DNA of 64,000 nt from Escherichia phage ime09: the sequence record NC_019503.1, one strand, 5' to 3'. Positions within the stretch are counted from its first letter, which is position 1. The number at the start of each line of letters is the position of its first letter. Made by a program: the position numbers and the translations under genes. This document shows positions 54,790 through 64,000 of the stretch, one piece after another. The notes below the pieces were generated by a model, which was not told the DNA's origin, searched no databases, and saw only the letters and a program-made list of their open reading frames with translations.

Positions 54790-56847
54790 CTACATCTTGA
54801 ACTTTTTAGACATTCCGTTGATGTTAACCAAAGAAGCCAAGATTTGAGAAACTTCGTTTTCCTCTTCTTTTGATTCTTCTACAAGGAATTGATTAAACCC
54901 AGCCATTGGACGAACTTCACCAGTTTCCATTAGATGATCGCCATCATATACCGATTCTTCTAATTGTTCAGAAGGAGGAACGATTGTGCCTTCGATTAGA
55001 TACTTGTTATAAGCAGTTTCTTTCATCATGTACGTGCTTACTTTATTAATCTTCAACAAAATTCCACGCGGTAGAATAACTTCAGCTTCTGATGGAAATC
55101 CTGATAAATGACCTGGAACGATAACTTTGATTCGCTCAGCCCCTTTAATTACCATACCTACGCTAGTTTCAGCATCTTCATTAGCATATGCAGAATGACT
55201 ACCCATATGCATTAAATCTTCAGCATCAACAGAACCTTCTCCTTCACCAGAAAATACTGCACCGGAATCATCTAGAGCCATATAGTTTTTACCATGCTCA
55301 CCGAAGATATTTGGTTTAAGCGATGTTGATACGAAGTTCTTGAAATAGAACATTTTATTTTCAATATTATGGCGTAAAGTTTTAAAAGTAACTTCTTGTC
55401 CACGATAAAGCGTAGTTCCTGGAGGAAGAACTGATCCTTTTGCGAATGCAGAATCCAGCGTCTCGATGTGTTTAATAGCTCGTTCCATGTATTCTTCACG
55501 GGTAGAATCTGGTTTACCCAAGAGGAACGAGTTCATTTCAACATATGAATCTGCACAATAATCTTCAATTACATCAGACTCAGCCTGAGTCAGTCCTTTT
55601 GGAGTTACTTCGGTGCTTGCGTATTCATATGCCTGAGCAGCAGATTCATTAATCAATTTATAAATGCCATTCATGACAAATTGAATAATAGCTACTTTTT
55701 CGTCTGGCGTGGCTTTAGAACCTTTAACTAAATCATTGATAATTTTCTTAATAACATCAAAGCTATTAGAAATATTAATGTCAGCGAGATCGCTCAAAAT
55801 TTTATCGGTTTTATAATCAAAAAATTCTTTATTCTTTAAATATTCTTGAGAACCTTGATGTGTTATATCGCTCTGCAGTCTGATAGACGGATCACGTAAA
55901 CGTGCATGGGCCAATGCAATATGATTTCGGAAGCTTTCTAGTTCATAATCGTTAGATTTAAAACGAGAAGCACTTCTCATACCACCGATAGCTCCTTTGC
56001 CGAAGTTTGAACCAATCTGAATAACGCCAGAGTTCATTGGTCCTTCTGCTTTATATACCGGAACTTTAGATTCAAACTCTTGATATTTCTTGGCAGCGAA
56101 GCTATCACCCTGAAGTGAAGCATCGACAGTAGAATATTGAGCTTGTGCTGCTAATCGACGACTAATTTTAGTTTTCTGAATAACAGCTTGATCCGTGCGC
56201 TTATCATTTTCTAAGGCAATAGAAGCAGCAACAGCAACAGCTTTAGGAACAGCATTACCTGTTTTAACATCTACATAAACATCACCAACCTTTGATTCAA
56301 CTTTTGTGAATAACTCAGTTGAAATAGGAGGTACACCTGGAATGTCTTCTAAATTGGCATTTTTACGGTAAACCATAATATATGCATACTTTTTATCATA
56401 ATCCCAGATTTCCTTTAAAAGAACATATCGACCTGCTCCTTTAGTACGTACTAAACGGTCAGCAATAACTTGCATTTGACGAGCAGCGCCATTTGTTTTA
56501 CTTTTTAGTACGCGGAATAGGCATGCGTCAATTTTATACTGTTTCATTGTTTGAAGAGCAGTATCAAAAACCGCATTAATGACACCAATTGGATTTCCAC
56601 CCAAGTTTTTAAGTTTAACGAGCGATAGTTTCTCATTGACACCTATCATTACGATATGCATCATTTTATCGCCTGGCTTAACGTTTTTATTTGTATCACC
56701 GCCAGAGGTGTATGTACAAAATCTAAATCCAGGAAGCACACTTTCTTCGCCGGCTTGAATAGCAAAAATTTGAGGTATTTTATGCTTAGGATTTAAGTTA
56801 ACAACCGGCGCCGAAGCGCCGTCAAATAATTCTGTAATAAGTTCCAT
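54790..56847 (-). CDS. Alt-like mono-ADP-ribosyltransferase paralog
   Basis: 685 aa; N-terminal ~230 aa closely similar to the upstream alt product (MELITELFD..); C-terminal R / STS / E-x-E motifs (..LYRGQ.., ..FVSTSL.., ..SEAEVILPRG..). Confidence 0.85.
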   Translation of the reverse strand: MELITELFDGASAPVVNLNPKHKIPQIFAIQAGEESVLPGFRFCTYTSGGDTNKNVKPGDKMMHIVMIGVNEKLSLVKLKNLGGNPIGVINAVFDTALQTMKQYKIDACLFRVLKSKTNGAARQMQVIADRLVRTKGAGRYVLLKEIWDYDKKYAYIMVYRKNANLEDIPGVPPISTELFTKVESKVGDVYVDVKTGNAVPKAVAVAASIALENDKRTDQAVIQKTKISRRLAAQAQYSTVDASLQGDSFAAKKYQEFESKVPVYKAEGPMNSGVIQIGSNFGKGAIGGMRSASRFKSNDYELESFRNHIALAHARLRDPSIRLQSDITHQGSQEYLKNKEFFDYKTDKILSDLADINISNSFDVIKKIINDLVKGSKATPDEKVAIIQFVMNGIYKLINESAAQAYEYASTEVTPKGLTQAESDVIEDYCADSYVEMNSFLLGKPDSTREEYMERAIKHIETLDSAFAKGSVLPPGTTLYRGQEVTFKTLRHNIENKMFYFKNFVSTSLKPNIFGEHGKNYMALDDSGAVFSGEGEGSVDAEDLMHMGSHSAYANEDAETSVGMVIKGAERIKVIVPGHLSGFPSEAEVILPRGILLKINKVSTYMMKETAYNKYLIEGTIVPPSEQLEESVYDGDHLMETGEVRPMAGFNQFLVEESKEEENEVSQILASLVNINGMSKKFKM

Positions 56848-56850
56848 GAT

Positions 56851-58947
56851 TTATCCTTGAACGAACTTGTAAGGCATGTTTGTAATATCTATGCAAGACG
56901 CAATAATTCCAAGAGATGATTCTACTTTTTGTTTAACATTTGATGAAACAAATGATGCAAAGTCAACTCTGTCTTCTATTTCAATATCACCTGTCATTGC
57001 AACTACTTCACCAGTTTCCATTAGACGGTCACCGTCATAAATTACTGATTCGGTGAGTTCTTCCGTAGTCATAACTTCAGCTTGAATGAGTTTTGTATTA
57101 TTAGATGTTGTTCCGTCGTTATTAGAAGCATCAGTTATTTTATTGACTTTGACCATCAATCCGCGTGGTAGAATAACTTCAGCTTCTGTTGCTATTCCGA
57201 GACTTCCTGGATATACAACATTAACTTTATGAGCTCCATCAATTGCCCATCCTATTTGAACTTTAACGTATTCAGGATTTTCTTTATACGCTCTTATTTC
57301 ATTTGGATTAATAGTTATTCCTTCTTCATTTTTATCAACTGTCAATTCATTACGAGCTTCTGGTTCTAAAAGACCAATACCAGCATGTGTAATTCCAAAA
57401 CGTCCAAAAATGATAGGAGTTAAAGAAGTAGATACAAAATTTCTGAAATAGAACACTTTATTTTTAACTAGTGCTTCGTATATAGGAGCAGTCATGCTTT
57501 GAGCACGATAAACTGTAATGCCTTCTGGTATACGGTCACCGTTTTCAAAAGCTGAATCTAAGTTATTTATAGCAGATTCAATTTCTTTTTCACTCATTAC
57601 ATCATATCGTTCTGGATTGTAACGACCCAAAAGAAGATTATTGATGTCAGTATATCCTGAACCACAATACTCTCTAATGCCGCGCTTTTGTGATGGAGTA
57701 TATTTAGAACCATCACGGGCAATAGTAATATCAATCATTGGACCTGCACCAATTCCAGAAAAGCTATAAATCATTCGTTTGAGGAATTTAGTTTTTGCTG
57801 CGTTCCAGGAATTTTTAGTTATTTCTTCCCAGACTTCATCTGGCTGTCCTTTACGGGTTTTATTATGTTTATCAAGCCAATTATCTTTATATTCTTCAAA
57901 GAATTGATTAACGGCTGCTGCGTATTTCTCCAAACATTTTATTGAAGTAGTTGGTTCATTTTTAATCGCATTAAGAATTACATCTTTAATTTTTTCAGAA
58001 ACTTCATTAACCTCACTTTTTGAAAAGAATTTATAATCATAGTGAAGTTCATCTGCAGTTCCTTCGGCAATGATTTTTGCTGCCTTAGTTTTAGAAGCTA
58101 ATGAATTAATTCCAAGCTTCATTTCTTCTGCTTCGGGAATTAAAGGAGCTGTAGCAGGTTTATTGAAATTAGCTGCGGTAGATTCATACTTTTGGAATAA
58201 TTCACTTTCAAATCTAGAAGATTCCAATGACTGACTTTGTGCAATTGCTCTGCGGGAAATTTTAACTTTAACGATTACAGCTTGGTCAGAACGTTTATCG
58301 TTTTCTTGTGCAATAGATGCTGCAATTGCCTCATTTTTAGTTACTTGAGCTCCAGTATCTTTATTGATATAAACATCACCGACCTTCGATTCAACTTTAG
58401 TAAAGAGCTCGGTACTGATTTCCGGAACTCCTGGAATGTCTTCTAATGATACATTTTTGCGATGTATAAGAATATATGCATACTTTTTATCGTAATCCCA
58501 GAGTTCCTTAAGAAGGACGTATCTGCCGCCTGAACGGCTGCGGATAAGTCTATCAGCAATAACTTGAATTTGTCGAGCTTGACCAGCAGTTTTAGACTTA
58601 AGAATACGAAGCATACAGGCATCAATTTTATACTGACGCATTGTTTGCATTGCAACAGTAAAAACTGAATTGATGTAATTAATTGGGCTTGGACCGAGAC
58701 CTTTCAATTTAGCAATTGAACCTTTAGCAGTTAATGTAAAAGGAACAATATGCATCATTTTATCACCCATCTTTAAATCGCGATTAGTATCACCTCCAGA
58801 TGTATAGGTACATAAACGAAAGCCTGGTTGTTCAATTGCGTCATCAACATGAACTGAAAAAATTTGCGGTATTTTCTTCTTTGGATTTAAGTTTGTAATC
58901 GGAAGAGTAGTATCTTCGTCAAATAATTCTGTAATGAGTTCCATCAT
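56851..58947 (-). CDS. alt: Alt ADP-ribosyltransferase (packaged, injected enzyme in T4)
   Basis: 698 aa (684 from second Met); MMELITELFDEDTTLPITNL..; R / STS / E-x-E motifs (..VYRAQ.., ..FVSTSL.., ..TEAEVILPRG..); TATAAATA late promoter upstream. Confidence 0.9.
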   Translation of the reverse strand: MMELITELFDEDTTLPITNLNPKKKIPQIFSVHVDDAIEQPGFRLCTYTSGGDTNRDLKMGDKMMHIVPFTLTAKGSIAKLKGLGPSPINYINSVFTVAMQTMRQYKIDACMLRILKSKTAGQARQIQVIADRLIRSRSGGRYVLLKELWDYDKKYAYILIHRKNVSLEDIPGVPEISTELFTKVESKVGDVYINKDTGAQVTKNEAIAASIAQENDKRSDQAVIVKVKISRRAIAQSQSLESSRFESELFQKYESTAANFNKPATAPLIPEAEEMKLGINSLASKTKAAKIIAEGTADELHYDYKFFSKSEVNEVSEKIKDVILNAIKNEPTTSIKCLEKYAAAVNQFFEEYKDNWLDKHNKTRKGQPDEVWEEITKNSWNAAKTKFLKRMIYSFSGIGAGPMIDITIARDGSKYTPSQKRGIREYCGSGYTDINNLLLGRYNPERYDVMSEKEIESAINNLDSAFENGDRIPEGITVYRAQSMTAPIYEALVKNKVFYFRNFVSTSLTPIIFGRFGITHAGIGLLEPEARNELTVDKNEEGITINPNEIRAYKENPEYVKVQIGWAIDGAHKVNVVYPGSLGIATEAEVILPRGLMVKVNKITDASNNDGTTSNNTKLIQAEVMTTEELTESVIYDGDRLMETGEVVAMTGDIEIEDRVDFASFVSSNVKQKVESSLGIIASCIDITNMPYKFVQG

Positions 58948-58996: not shown

Positions 58997-59185
58997 TTAA
59001 TAATCTATTGGTAAGAGAGTACGGTATATTTCAAACTTTGGACCTTTTTCGTAGGCATCAAATGTTTCTGTGAATTTATTATAAGCATACGCATCTATAA
59101 ATTCAATCATAATTTGTGATACAGAAGTAGAAACATCTCCACCTTCTTTTTGAGCCACGACAATTGTTTCTAAATAAGCTTTCAT
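58997..59185 (-). CDS. hypothetical protein
   Basis: 62 aa ORF between gene 30 and alt. Confidence 0.45.
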   Translation of the reverse strand: MKAYLETIVVAQKEGGDVSTSVSQIMIEFIDAYAYNKFTETFDAYEKGPKFEIYRTLLPIDY

Positions 59186-60645
59186 AGACCAGTTACCTCA
59201 TGAAAATCACCAAATACATCCTCGAATGTATTAGCTTTAGTTTTATCTTCACGTAAACGAATCGCAATCGGAAGAAATAATTTAACGTAATCAGTGCGGC
59301 CATCAGATTTTAACCAACCGTTGCATTCGCACTCTAGAATTTTTCCAATATAATAATTTTGGTTTTCCATAATGCGAGTACGGTCAAGTTCATGTGATTT
59401 TACACCGGCTTTATCTTTTAAGCCTGAACCAGCATTTACTTTAATTTTTCCACACTCTGATTCAAGAATAAATCCACCTGCTTTGGTAGGGTCTTTACGG
59501 TGAGGATAAATTCCTACAATTTTTAAATCAACATCAATTACTTCTTTAAATTTATAAAGATTTTTTGAACGAGCATTTTCCCACAATCCATCGGTATTTT
59601 TGAGAATAATACCTTCAAGACCTTGGTCAATATACTTTTTATAAATTACCTTAGCTTCATCTAGGTTATTTACTACCTGGTTTTCAATTAAAATTACTTT
59701 ATCATATCCTGATGTCATTTGTTCTAGTTTAGAAAAACGCACATCATATTTTAAACGAAACGCCGGAAGACCATATATTTCTACCAACGGAACATAATCC
59801 CAGACCTGAAACTTCATGCATTGAGCTTCTTTTTCAGAAATGGTTCCTTTTAAGGATTTATTGGCGATTCCATTAGAAGTAGTACGAGATTCCGCTACTT
59901 CGGCGAATTCTTTAGCTTTACTAATTTCAGGATAAGCATCAAAAAGAAAATCTAGGCCTTCTGGTTCCTTTTTAACTTGCTCGTGGTATACCAATTCGCC
60001 ATCAATTAACACACCTTCTGGATGAATCTGGCGGGCTTCAGCAGTCATTTTGATTAATTCTTCCTTAAGAAGATCTAATCCTAGATATTCATTACCAGCT
60101 CGTGATAAAAGACGAACATCATCTAATTCATCGCCTCTAACTTCAGCAAAACACCGGGCTCCATCTGCTTTTAACTGTGCAAAGGCTGGAAATTTGATAT
60201 TCTTACTAATGCCCTTTTCATCATAAGAACTTGCCAGCATTTGAGGTTGTTCAGGAATTAAACCTGGCCAAACTTTGTTTGCAATAGATACTGAAGCACC
60301 GCATTCAAGGTCTCGCATCATCACTCGACGCAAAACTTCAACATCATCCTTTTTACCATCGGTGATATATCCAGTTAATTCCTCAATTGCAGCATTTCCG
60401 GTCAATTTCCGAGTAGCTAACGTGAATTCAATGAAGTCAAGCATATCGGTAATAGTCAGCATTCCAAAACTCTGGGTAGCAATATCAGGTTTAGGCCATT
60501 TCTTGATATAATACTGTAACCCACGAGAATAAGTCAGACGATATACCCGTTTAAGCAATTCATTATCTTTATTCTTTTCAAGAATTGCTTGCTTCTGCTT
60601 AGTTGATCCAATAGATGCTATTTCATTCAGAATTTTAAGAATCAT
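59182..60645 (-). CDS. 30: ATP-dependent DNA ligase
   Basis: 487 aa; adenylation motif KADGAR; MILKILNEIASIGSTKQKQAILEKNKDNELLKRVY.. recognised as T4 DNA ligase. Confidence 0.95.
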   Translation of the reverse strand: MILKILNEIASIGSTKQKQAILEKNKDNELLKRVYRLTYSRGLQYYIKKWPKPDIATQSFGMLTITDMLDFIEFTLATRKLTGNAAIEELTGYITDGKKDDVEVLRRVMMRDLECGASVSIANKVWPGLIPEQPQMLASSYDEKGISKNIKFPAFAQLKADGARCFAEVRGDELDDVRLLSRAGNEYLGLDLLKEELIKMTAEARQIHPEGVLIDGELVYHEQVKKEPEGLDFLFDAYPEISKAKEFAEVAESRTTSNGIANKSLKGTISEKEAQCMKFQVWDYVPLVEIYGLPAFRLKYDVRFSKLEQMTSGYDKVILIENQVVNNLDEAKVIYKKYIDQGLEGIILKNTDGLWENARSKNLYKFKEVIDVDLKIVGIYPHRKDPTKAGGFILESECGKIKVNAGSGLKDKAGVKSHELDRTRIMENQNYYIGKILECECNGWLKSDGRTDYVKLFLPIAIRLREDKTKANTFEDVFGDFHEVTGL

Positions 60646-60911
60646 TGCTCATCCTTCAAAGTTTGGTTTACAGCTCTATTATAAATCAATTCATCATTAA
60701 GCTCAGGCAAAGACTTATGATATGTAGTTCTAACTTTATTTCCTTGCATCCAGTGCTTGACGTAAATGAAACCTTGCTCTACACATTTTTTAAAAATTCG
60801 TTCGTCTTTTTGAGCTCGGAATTCTGGATTGCATCTAAAAAATTGATTTACGTGACCGTAATCACGTGTAGTATTACCTTCATTTTCATAAATAGTGTGA
60901 ACGACAAACAT
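60642..60911 (-). CDS. hypothetical protein (30.1 position)
   Basis: 89 aa ORF overlapping stop of next gene. Confidence 0.5.
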   Translation of the reverse strand: MFVVHTIYENEGNTTRDYGHVNQFFRCNPEFRAQKDERIFKKCVEQGFIYVKHWMQGNKVRTTYHKSLPELNDELIYNRAVNQTLKDEQ

Positions 60912-61750
60912 TAGAATGCTCCTTGGAAAATATTATCACCACAAGTAGGTCTATTATACAAATACTCTATGCCACCAGGTTTAATATAGTTCCATGTCTG
61001 AAACGGATGTGTCTGATATGGATGATATAGATGATTATAAGGATTAAACCCAGGCGTTCTCCAGGTAGTGTTCCAACGAAAAGAATCGTTTTTAACCATC
61101 TTCTCAATTAAATCTTTTATAGCTTTTTCACTATCAAAACTTTCTTTATTTTCCTTCGGCGAAAAAAGCTTATTTTCTACATCATTCCATGTATAAACTC
61201 GCTGCGCAGTTTTTGGAATATTGTCACGCTCTCCTCGAGCCATCCAATAAACAGGAACATTTAATATTTCACTAGCATGATCGCAGTGATGAGCGAGATC
61301 GTCAATATAACAAATTACGTTATATTTCTCTTTTGCCTTTTTGAACAACTCTTCTTTTGAAGAATCATGACCGCACATCATTACTTCCGAGAAGGCACCA
61401 GGAAAAAGAGCATTCAAATTAAATTGACGATTCAACAGAGCGTCAATAGAATCACCCAATGCTGTAACAGCTACAAAATTATAATCTTCTTTTAATTTGT
61501 TAATTACACACAGGGCATCTTTATATGGAGACAAGTAACGAATAAAATCTGATCGATTGTATTTTTCAATTAGCTTGACACCAAGTTCTTCATCACAGTT
61601 AAATAGTTTACCTGGAGAAATAAATTTCTCATCTTGGATCATTTTTAAAATATGTTCTAACGGAAGATTATATTTCTGAGCAAAATAAGGAAGACCTGAT
61701 TGCCAGCTTAAACATACTCCATCAATATCAGTTAAAATAGTAGGCTTCAT
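60911..61750 (-). CDS. HAD-superfamily hydrolase-like protein (30.2 position)
   Basis: 279 aa; N-terminal ILTDIDGV matches HAD motif I (DxDG). Confidence 0.55.
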   Translation of the reverse strand: MKPTILTDIDGVCLSWQSGLPYFAQKYNLPLEHILKMIQDEKFISPGKLFNCDEELGVKLIEKYNRSDFIRYLSPYKDALCVINKLKEDYNFVAVTALGDSIDALLNRQFNLNALFPGAFSEVMMCGHDSSKEELFKKAKEKYNVICYIDDLAHHCDHASEILNVPVYWMARGERDNIPKTAQRVYTWNDVENKLFSPKENKESFDSEKAIKDLIEKMVKNDSFRWNTTWRTPGFNPYNHLYHPYQTHPFQTWNYIKPGGIEYLYNRPTCGDNIFQGAF

Positions 61751-62211
61751 AGAGAGTCTCTTAATAGGTTTAACACATCAATAAATTCAGCTTCGGTTAG
61801 TATTGTATCATCTTTTGTTAGACCACTAGCCATGCTGTGCTTCAAAACTTTTCCTTTCGAGGCTTGTAATGCATCGCGAAAGCCCCTGTTTTGGAACGCT
61901 GCTTCAAAATATGCATTTGTGTATAATTCTTTCCACGCTGGAGAGTATCTTGAAAACGGAACTCCAAGCCAGAAGAGGGTCCCACGGTCCTGAGCTCTAG
62001 CATAAGCTCGTCCAGCTTGTTGGGCAGCAAGCCCGGATAACCCAAATATACGACGTTGCTGTTCAACATTTTTCACCTTACACCCTTGGAGGAATCCTTC
62101 GAGACCTCCAAATTGGATACCATCCATAACAAAAGGCCATTGGGCGAAATTACTTAGTGCGCATGATGGCCATCTAAAATTGCTTCTTATCTCTAACTCA
62201 GACATTTTCAA
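61747..62211 (-). CDS. NADAR (YbiA/DUF1768)-like protein, candidate ADP-ribose-processing enzyme (30.3 position)
   Basis: 154 aa; ..CALSNFAQWPFVMDGIQF.. resembles the SNFxxWP..DG motif I recall from E. coli YbiA-type NADAR domains. Confidence 0.45.
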   Translation of the reverse strand: MKMSELEIRSNFRWPSCALSNFAQWPFVMDGIQFGGLEGFLQGCKVKNVEQQRRIFGLSGLAAQQAGRAYARAQDRGTLFWLGVPFSRYSPAWKELYTNAYFEAAFQNRGFRDALQASKGKVLKHSMASGLTKDDTILTEAEFIDVLNLLRDSL

Positions 62212-62413
62212 TACTTATAATTTCAACATCAGCCCAATGACCGTAACCCGGTAAACGGTCTTCAATAGATAATCCGCCATCATATTTAAGCATTTTAATT
62301 GTCATAATATATGGCTCTAAATGGTCTTCTGTGAGAGGAGAAACGTCAGTCACACGATAAGTAACTTCAACCATTTCCGTACCTAATAATTTCTGAATTA
62401 ATTTCTTAAACAT
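62198..62413 (-). CDS. hypothetical protein
   Basis: 71 aa ORF. Confidence 0.45.
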   Translation of the reverse strand: MFKKLIQKLLGTEMVEVTYRVTDVSPLTEDHLEPYIMTIKMLKYDGGLSIEDRLPGYGHWADVEIISIENV

Positions 62414-62417
62414 TTTA

Positions 62418-62705
62418 TTAGAACCTCATCTGAAAACCGTGCGATTTAACATTACCGCCGCCAATATCAGAAATATTAATTTCACGCGCAATTGAAGGAT
62501 CAATGTCAATTTCACGATTGAGTTTAGTGATAGCTAAAGTATCGCGGCCATTTACAGTACGGAACTCTAAAGGACATACTACATTAACGTAGTTTTTAAT
62601 CGATTCGCTGGTAGGTTGCAAATGAGCAGGAAGGTCTTTAGGCGCCTTAGAGAAAACCACTTCACAGAAGTTTTTACGAGTATCAAAATAAGTAGTCATA
62701 AACAT
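62418..62705 (-). CDS. hypothetical protein
   Basis: 95 aa ORF; GAGGAAAATACT RBS region; preceded by GGGGCCGAAGCCCC hairpin. Confidence 0.5.
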   Translation of the reverse strand: MFMTTYFDTRKNFCEVVFSKAPKDLPAHLQPTSESIKNYVNVVCPLEFRTVNGRDTLAITKLNREIDIDPSIAREINISDIGGGNVKSHGFQMRF

Positions 62706-62746
62706 AGTATTTTCCTCAGTAAGGGGCCGAAGCCCCTCATTTTATT

Positions 62747-63112
62747 TTAAATATCAAATTCATTAAGAACTACATCAAAGATCGCTTCAAGATGCTCAGG
62801 TTTAGCTCTGTTACTCAGAATATGACGAATCCAAGTTTTAACCAGAAGCTTGCGATTAACACCATTCCAGCAAGGATGAGTCCCTAAATCGCGTTGACGA
62901 AAATCATCATCCAAAGCAATTTTGAAGTTGGAACCTTCCATTGTGATTGAAACCGTGATGCCATTTTCAAATCGCATATAAACGTAGTTAGGAGTCATAT
63001 ACTGTTCAATTTCGCATACTGATCCATTTTGATGTTTCCAAAGGCAAATAGTATCAATAGAACCTGCAATACCATTAGAAACATATTTACGTTCAAAGTT
63101 AATGTAGTTCAT
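62747..63112 (-). CDS. hypothetical protein
   Basis: 121 aa ORF. Confidence 0.5.
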   Translation of the reverse strand: MNYINFERKYVSNGIAGSIDTICLWKHQNGSVCEIEQYMTPNYVYMRFENGITVSITMEGSNFKIALDDDFRQRDLGTHPCWNGVNRKLLVKTWIRHILSNRAKPEHLEAIFDVVLNEFDI

Positions 63113-63182
63113 TTTTATTCTCCGAGATGTTTAATTGCGGTACAGGTATATAATATCATATCCTGTACCAAAGTAAACTATT

Positions 63183-63551
63183 TTATGCAACTTTAATCCA
63201 ATTATCTAAATTTAATTCACCTTTGGCTTTCATTTTTTCAATCAAGAGGTCAGCGGTAATACGACCATTTTGATACCACGTAACATCTTCAGAGTAACCA
63301 GTTTCTTTATCTTCATAAGTCTCACAGCGAATTTTACCAAGAATCAAAGTTTTTAATTCGTATGTATCTCCAGTAAAAAAGTTAGTTAACATTATTTTCC
63401 AAGAGAAGTCATCAGAAGGACCTTCAGGAGTCATGCAACCTACAAATTCAAATTGTTCTTTGTATAAGTGCCACTGAAGTTCTTTAGTTTCGATAGCTTT
63501 ATAGCCGTCGTGATCTTTACCTTTGATGTATGAGTTAAGATTGATTTTCAT
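63183..63551 (-). CDS. hypothetical protein
   Basis: 122 aa ORF, GGAGAATAAAATG RBS, early-promoter-like element upstream. Confidence 0.5.
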   Translation of the reverse strand: MKINLNSYIKGKDHDGYKAIETKELQWHLYKEQFEFVGCMTPEGPSDDFSWKIMLTNFFTGDTYELKTLILGKIRCETYEDKETGYSEDVTWYQNGRITADLLIEKMKAKGELNLDNWIKVA

Positions 63552-63579
63552 TTTATTCTCCTTTGTTTGTGTAAGATAA

Positions 63580-63608
63580 TACTATCACAAAGGAACCATA
63601 CTGTAAAC
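63580..63608 (-). promoter_or_regulatory. early promoter-like element, -35 GTTTAC / -10 TAGTAT
   Basis: GTTTAC at 63603-63608 and TAGTAT at 63580-63585 (minus strand), upstream of gene 63183-63551. Confidence 0.5.
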
Positions 63609-63661
63609 AACTTTGTGCAATCTTTGGAAAATAAAAAAGGACTCCCGAAGGAGTCCTCAAC

Positions 63662-63839
63662 TTATGCTTTCTGCTTACCAAAACGAGAAGCATCATCTCG
63701 AAGAACCGCACGTGCTCGGCGCATGATCTTCTCAACAGTTTGATTGATACGAGAGTTCGACCCACGCTTGTAACCAGCGCGTTTAGAATCACCAACTTTC
63801 TTTTCAACTGCTTTCTTTGCTTTAGCTTGTTTTGCCATT
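63662..63839 (-). CDS. small highly basic protein (Lys/Arg-rich, possible nucleic-acid binder); start taken at MAKQAKAKK
   Basis: ORF 63662-63880; internal ATG at 63837-63839; 58 aa with many K/R. Confidence 0.4.
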
Positions 63840-64000
63840 ATAAATTCTCTTTTAAATGAAAATGCAGGACTTATTGGCATTGCCTGCGAAAGCCCTCAAG
63901 GGGTACTTAGGTTTTGAATATTTACCGACAGGATAACCATAAACCTCGTCAACATTCAAGAGGTACACCGTAAAACAAAGTTCGACGGCTCCTCGTTTTA

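Follow-up and report, generated by a model that had tools for sequence, protein, structure and literature searches.

Gene 30.3 of Escherichia phage ime09 as an apparently intact orthologue of the T4 anti-DarT factor gene adfN, next to a predicted HAD phosphatase gene

The window analysed here is the whole stretch of 64,000 nucleotides from Escherichia phage ime09 (NC_019503.1), which by DNA similarity belongs to Tequatrovirus (97.9% identity to Escherichia phage A6-6; 721 phage records match). Between positions 59182 and 63112, its minus strand carries a series of genes that overlap or follow one another closely, which we named by comparison with the annotated T4 genome as alt.1, 30, 30.1, 30.2, 30.3, 30.4, 30.6 and 30.7. 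The DNA ligase encoded by gene 30 is 98.6% identical to that of T4. Every gene lies on the minus strand and the order of transcription is 30.4, 30.3, 30.2, 30.1 and then 30, so that the NADAR-like and HAD-like genes (30.3 and 30.2), which an earlier note had placed downstream of the ligase gene, both lie upstream of it along the direction of transcription. The features of this pair are as follows:

60911..61750, minus strand: homologue of T4 gene 30.2, 279 aa; residues 1-197 correspond to a predicted HAD-superfamily phosphatase domain, followed by a C-terminal tail modelled with low confidence
61747..61750, minus strand: ATGA overlap of the 30.3 stop and the 30.2 start, read from the sequence; T4 is arranged alike
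61747..62205, minus strand: coding sequence of adfN (T4 gene 30.3), 152 aa plus stop, for a predicted phage-type NADAR ADP-ribosylglycohydrolase
61750..61794, minus strand: C-terminal helix of AdfN, residues 138-152 (helix 138-151 in the model), identical to T4; the portion missing in the inactive RB69 allele
61842..62069, minus strand: internal out-of-frame ORF 30.3', 75 aa, annotated in T4, with no sign of coding constraint
62206..62211, minus strand: two additional codons, TTG AAA, the source of a 154-aa count for 30.3 (judged by the T4 annotation and the E36/K43 numbering)

Both open reading frames that had been pointed out before, of 154 and 279 aa, are present on the minus strand at these positions, and their overlap consists of the ATGA. 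From their sequences, 30.3 and 30.2 are real genes and not chance ORFs, since the 30.3 protein matches the Pfam family Phage_30_3, homologues of the 30.3 and 30.2 proteins occur in 1509 and 1451 phage records, respectively, and the differences from T4 in 30.3 are mostly synonymous. For 30.3 we counted 20 nucleotide differences from T4, 15 of which are silent, which indicates purifying selection on this gene. The length of 154 aa holds for the maximal ORF from a TTG codon (61747-62211), whereas the start annotated in T4 is an ATG two codons further on (62205), which overlaps the end of 30.4 by 8 nt, as it does in T4, and gives a protein of 152 aa. We prefer the 152-aa ORF because only the ATG start reproduces the published numbering of E36 and K43; the codons TTG AAA are hence probably not translated.

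The closest known system is T4 AdfN (gp30.3, PF08010), to which the protein of the window is 97% identical along its entire length (148/152 residues), with the same position in the order 30.4-30.3-30.2-30.1-ligase, the same residues E36, K43 and H123 and an intact C-terminal helix. It differs from T4 AdfN by the four conservative substitutions S67A, I104F, K107R and I125M, which leave the catalytic residues untouched. The reading frame runs through to ...EFIDVLNLLRDSL as in T4, and the C-terminus is therefore of full length. Many tblastn matches spanned just residues 1-144 of gp30.3 and had raised the thought of a common, RB69-like C-terminal truncation; since T4 was also cut off under default filtering but aligned over residues 1-152 without filtering, this was rejected as an artefact of the default settings for filtering and composition.

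The overlapping frame 30.3' was likewise considered as a gene of its own and rejected. Its product is 87% identical to that of T4 30.3', compared with 97% for 30.3, and 12 of the 13 nucleotide differences within it alter its amino acids, in many cases radically; in the 30.3 frame most of them are silent. This substitution pattern speaks against a genuine overlapping gene. The feature that coincides with the match to a gp30.3 homologue is named 'anti-CBASS protein acb1' or 'virion RNA polymerase' in two database entries (PQ657790.1, from Klebsiella phage Roth16, and PP889464.1, from Klebsiella phage phi1_146010); these labels are probably annotation errors or belong to overlapping features.

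The surroundings of the pair are partly mosaic. The small genes near adfN at 62198-62705 and 63183-63551 (both minus strand) differ from their T4 counterparts, in that the locus lacks 30.5 and the 30.4 and 30.8 products are just 54% and 38% identical to T4, respectively, unlike 30.3, 30.2, 30.6, 30.7 and 30.9, which are 97-100% identical. On the other side of the ligase region, a tandem pair of full-length Alt-like ADP-ribosyltransferase genes is found at 54790-56847 and 56851-58947 (minus strand). The member adjoining alt.1 shares 70% identity with T4 Alt and the second (685 aa) 42%; T4 carries at the position of the latter the short remnants alt.-1, alt.-2 and alt.-3 and nothing longer. Directly downstream of 30.9, a strong terminator-like hairpin (9 bp stem with 5 GC pairs and a T-run) is located at 63637-63658 on the minus strand, beyond which this strand has no other terminator-like site until 59489. 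These positions are consistent with a single transcription unit from 30.8 to the ligase gene. A promoter scan of 59000-64000 returned 22 sites against 17.1 +/- 4.7 expected, which is not above chance, and we consequently claim no promoter.

The assignment of the 30.3 protein to the NADAR families is not evident from direct domain searches. Phage_30_3 (PF08010) matches it along the whole profile (positions 1-138 of 138) with E 4e-69 and 231 bits, where the cutoff is 36, but the Pfam NADAR profile (PF08719) gives no match to the 152-aa protein at E <= 1, NCBIfam holds no match for either the 30.3 or the 30.2 protein, and both families are entered in PHROGs as of unknown function. Without a direct PF08719 match, the NADAR link rests on profile comparison, on relatives and on structure. 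A family profile built from 59 homologues with identities down to 35% recovered E. coli YbiA (2b3w) from the PDB at E 0.007, and hhalign aligned the two with a probability of 92% (E 5e-7). The profile search suggested in the earlier note therefore failed in its direct form, yet succeeded by way of YbiA. Among the relatives of the 30.3 protein, PF08719 is matched by 8 of 58 (best E 1.5e-7), and several family members carry YbiA/DUF1768 names from JGI. The predicted fold matches NADAR structures only and, in the model, reproduces that of YbiA with a helical core between two small beta-hairpins.

The residues of the putative active site point in the same direction. The NADAR signature named in the earlier note proved accurate: the quoted motif LSNFAQWPFVMDGIQF occupies residues 17-32 of the 30.3 protein and lines up with FSNFAAWPIKVDGKTW in E. 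coli YbiA (a pairing also given as LSNFAQWPFVMDG against FSNFAAWPIKVDG), and its SNF block is invariant across the 59 homologues. The predicted catalytic positions are:

62098..62100, minus strand: codon GAA for catalytic Glu36, invariant in 59 homologues and aligned with YbiA E48
62077..62079, minus strand: codon AAG for catalytic Lys43, conserved in at least 90% of the homologues and aligned with YbiA K55
61837..61839, minus strand: codon CAC for His123, the last-strand residue marking phage NADARs, invariant in 59 homologues

The Glu/Lys pair seven residues apart that the NADAR superfamily requires is thus present (E36, K43). The hhalign alignment stops one residue short of H123, which we therefore place opposite YbiA E125; in the model it directly follows the last strand (120-122). 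A His in the last strand is the hallmark of phage NADARs, as opposed to Glu in the YbiA type and Asp in the DarG1 type (PMC11125620, PMC11543638). Taken together, sequence and model support that the 30.3 protein belongs to the NADAR/YbiA superfamily.

For the neighbouring gene product, gp30.2, which starts with MKPTILTDIDGV and is 97% identical to T4, the HAD motifs are as follows:

61715..61729, minus strand: HAD motif I, D8-I-D10-G-V, with the nucleophile Asp and the general acid/base Asp; all 54 homologues share D8, D10 and G11
61298..61303, minus strand: HAD motif IV, D150-D151, the predicted Mg2+ ligands, invariant in 54 homologues

With T96 as motif II (conserved in at least 90% of the 54 homologues) and K132 as motif III (invariant), all four HAD motifs are conserved in this family, in agreement with the earlier call of a HAD-like hydrolase from motif I. 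The model shows a capped Rossmannoid core of the HAD type. No Pfam family, the HAD profile included, is matched by gp30.2 itself at E <= 1; support from Pfam comes instead through its relatives, of which 8 of 54 match PF00702 (best E 1.2e-4). The nearest known enzymes, by a weak link, are the 5'(3')-deoxyribonucleotidases (NT5C, PF06941; PDB 2jao, 3bwv, 2i7d): five of the 54 relatives match PF06941 at E <= 0.01 (best 1.2e-4), the family profile finds 2jao at E 0.02 along the first 100 residues, and a Foldseek search of the PDB gives TMt values of 0.63-0.70. A second Asp in HAD motif I is a mark of phosphatases, not of dehalogenases, and we read gp30.2 accordingly. From sequence and model we conclude that it is a HAD phosphatase nearest to the NT5C branch, and analogy to this family suggests a (deoxy)nucleoside monophosphate as its substrate class. 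Our literature search on gp30.2 returned no paper and no function, and the role of this conserved phosphatase, found in about 1450 phage genomes, is from our point of view where the remaining interest of the locus lies.

Compared with the NT5C enzymes, gp30.2 has an added tail of about 80 aa (residues about 200-279; 60911-61150, minus strand), which is variable and poorly predicted. At residues 260-273, about 12-18 residues from the end of the protein, the tail contains the short conserved sequence G-I-E-Y-L-x-N/R-x-P-T, which 17 of 53 long homologues share but none of the 47 short ones. This may be a docking motif.

The function of the NADAR itself has already been described. Johannesman, Carlson and LeRoux mapped the resistance of T2 and T4 to DarTG1 to gene 30.3, which they renamed adfN for anti-DarT factor NADAR, and found that T-even phages need AdfN to escape DarTG1 and that AdfN suffices for this escape (PMC11257639). 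In the same study, the substitutions E36A and K43A each abolished the function of T4 AdfN, and the purified protein took ADP-ribose off DarT1-modified DNA without binding to DarT1. RB69 is sensitive to DarTG1 because a frameshift in its allele deletes the last 15 residues of AdfN (PMC11257639). The factor was most effective for T-even phages, which have hydroxymethylcytosine DNA, and poor for phages with unmodified DNA (PMC11257639). Guanine-ADPr hydrolysis by the T4 NADAR was reported in vitro by the Ahel group (PMC11125620), and G-ADPr hydrolase activity also in a 2026 paper, which describes the phage NADAR as a bare core domain and lists it as an eraser of G-ADPr, though not of C-ADPr (PMC12945103). 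Finally, in a transposon screen of T4 every adfN insertion was lost on DarTG1 hosts (HIDEN-SEQ preprint).

The proposal of the earlier note that this gene counters DNA ADP-ribosylation of the DarT type has hence been demonstrated by experiments on T4 AdfN, to which its product is 97% identical (PMC11257639, PMC11125620, HIDEN-SEQ preprint), and as the function of AdfN is published, the main interpretation is supported but was already known. Judged by sequence, the gene of the window is a functional-looking orthologue of the characterised adfN, i.e. a rediscovery of published biology, and by analogy the allele can be inferred to act like T4 AdfN. Its enzymatic activity and anti-DarTG1 phenotype are taken from the literature on the T4 protein, while our own analysis contributes identity, fold, conservation and gene layout.

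Two further groups of proteins help to define what kind of gene this is. The DarG1-type antitoxins (Geobacter lovleyi NADAR, PDB 8bat; E. coli C7 DarG1) carry Asp in the last strand where the protein of the window has His, and the latter lacks the N-terminal extension, being reduced to the core domain. DarG1 also cannot be replaced by T4 AdfN in uninfected E. coli (PMC11257639). No DarT1 toxin gene lies beside adfN in the window; its neighbours are 30.4 and 30.2, and we therefore regard it as an orphan antitoxin-like gene and not as part of a toxin-antitoxin system. E. coli YbiA (PDB 2b3w, PF08719), an N-glycosidase of riboflavin intermediates, shows about 21-24% identity to the protein of the window and has Glu125 where AdfN has His123; its gene resides in a LexA-controlled host operon (PMC11125620).

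The overlap of the two genes raises the question of whether NADAR and HAD protein work together. Their arrangement in the phages compared is:

Window and T4: 30.3 and 30.2 adjacent, with the ATGA overlap
Acinetobacter phage AB-Navy4: adjacent; NADAR, HAD, ligase and Alt-like transferase in this order
Klebsiella phage Miro: NADAR and HAD apart by two small ORFs
Cronobacter phage Pet-CM3-4: HAD next to ligase and alt; NADAR about 59 kb from there, among tRNA genes
Vibrio phage KVP40: NADAR; no HAD within 4 kb
Ralstonia phage RSP15: NADAR; no HAD within 4 kb

One could imagine a two-enzyme module in which AdfN frees ADP-ribose or a phosphorylated form of it, the product then being dephosphorylated or detoxified by gp30.2, or in which both act on one nucleotide-derived immune signal. 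The ATGA overlap in the window and in T4, the adjacency in AB-Navy4 and the presence of both families in about 1450-1500 phage records with nearly the same host distribution are in line with such a module, but the co-occurrence stems mostly from shared ancestry within Straboviridae, and the arrangements in Miro, Pet-CM3-4, KVP40 and RSP15 argue against it. The genes separate freely across the five other phage loci, so that a conserved NADAR plus HAD operon was rejected. In addition, AdfN alone suffices in trans against DarTG1 (PMC11257639), and the text of the HIDEN-SEQ preprint reports adfN with no mention of 30.2. As the HAD gene keeps company with the ligase gene, the NADAR gene is mobile and AdfN is sufficient in trans, an obligate module is unlikely. 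We hold the same doubt about the wider idea that gp30.2 is a second counter-defence or nucleotide-pool enzyme which would clear ADP-ribose or phosphorylated products, or degrade a nucleotide-derived immune signal, alongside AdfN, with its tail docking a partner protein.

Still less probable, in our view, is that the NADAR acts mainly on small molecules, be it soluble immune signals derived from ADP-ribose or, as for YbiA, reactive intermediates of riboflavin, and on DNA only secondarily. The activity of YbiA itself, a passage of Iyer et al. and the failure of AdfN to rescue uninfected cells from DarT1 (PMC11257639) can be counted in favour of this reading, but genetics and biochemistry directly demonstrate the removal of ADP-ribose from DNA and a phenotype specific to DarTG1 (PMC11257639; HIDEN-SEQ preprint), and the last strand has His where the YbiA family has Glu. 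The least probable of the readings, and to us a very remote one, is the alternative of the earlier note that the enzyme tunes the ADP-ribosylation driven by the phage itself by reversing Alt, ModA or ModB marks on host proteins or RNA. Alt and Mod enzymes modify arginine, which already speaks against it. The position of adfN two genes from the ligase gene and near two Alt-like ADP-ribosyltransferase genes, the early expression of NADARs along with the transferases in T4-like phages and the removal of G-ADPr from RNA by NADARs in vitro (PMC12945103) would fit this idea. Yet in the passages considered from PMC11125620 and PMC12945103, the T4 NADAR is reported to hydrolyse guanine N2-ADPr alone, thymidine-ADPr is not reversed, cytidine-ADPr is not listed among the substrates of phage NADARs and no protein substrate of the T4 NADAR is reported. 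Moreover, adfN mutants have no reported phenotype on hosts lacking DarTG1 (PMC11257639, HIDEN-SEQ preprint). Our analysis yielded no evidence in favour of tuning.

An intact adfN orthologue, encoding a NADAR with an anti-DarT role, next to a separate HAD phosphatase gene is by far the most probable overall explanation of the locus. Following the mechanism worked out for T4, the DarT1 toxin of the host would ADP-ribosylate guanine N2 in the replicating phage DNA, and AdfN, a minimal, core-only N-glycosidase of NADAR fold, would hydrolyse the bond between guanine and ribose and free the ADP-ribose. In this catalysis Glu36 and Lys43 would hold ribose and phosphate, joined by the phage-specific His123 of the last strand. 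Removal of the ADP-ribose would restore replication and allow the phage to form plaques on DarTG1 hosts, so that AdfN would in effect be a phage-borne orphan antitoxin. The predicted phosphatase gp30.2, Mg2+-dependent and with Asp8 as nucleophile, would be co-transcribed and translationally coupled with adfN, yet dispensable for the anti-DarT activity. AdfN exemplifies how phages capture an antitoxin-like enzyme to erase a DNA modification inflicted by the host, a mechanism that is published and has been reproduced, and to this the window contributes one further intact allele in Tequatrovirus.

A last observation concerns the location of the gene in other phages. In Pet-CM3-4 (L007:3001-3450) and RSP15 (L005:3995-4513), the NADAR of the gp30.3 family lies far away from the ligase region, within clusters of tRNA genes, which suggests that the NADAR gene moves between hypervariable regions.
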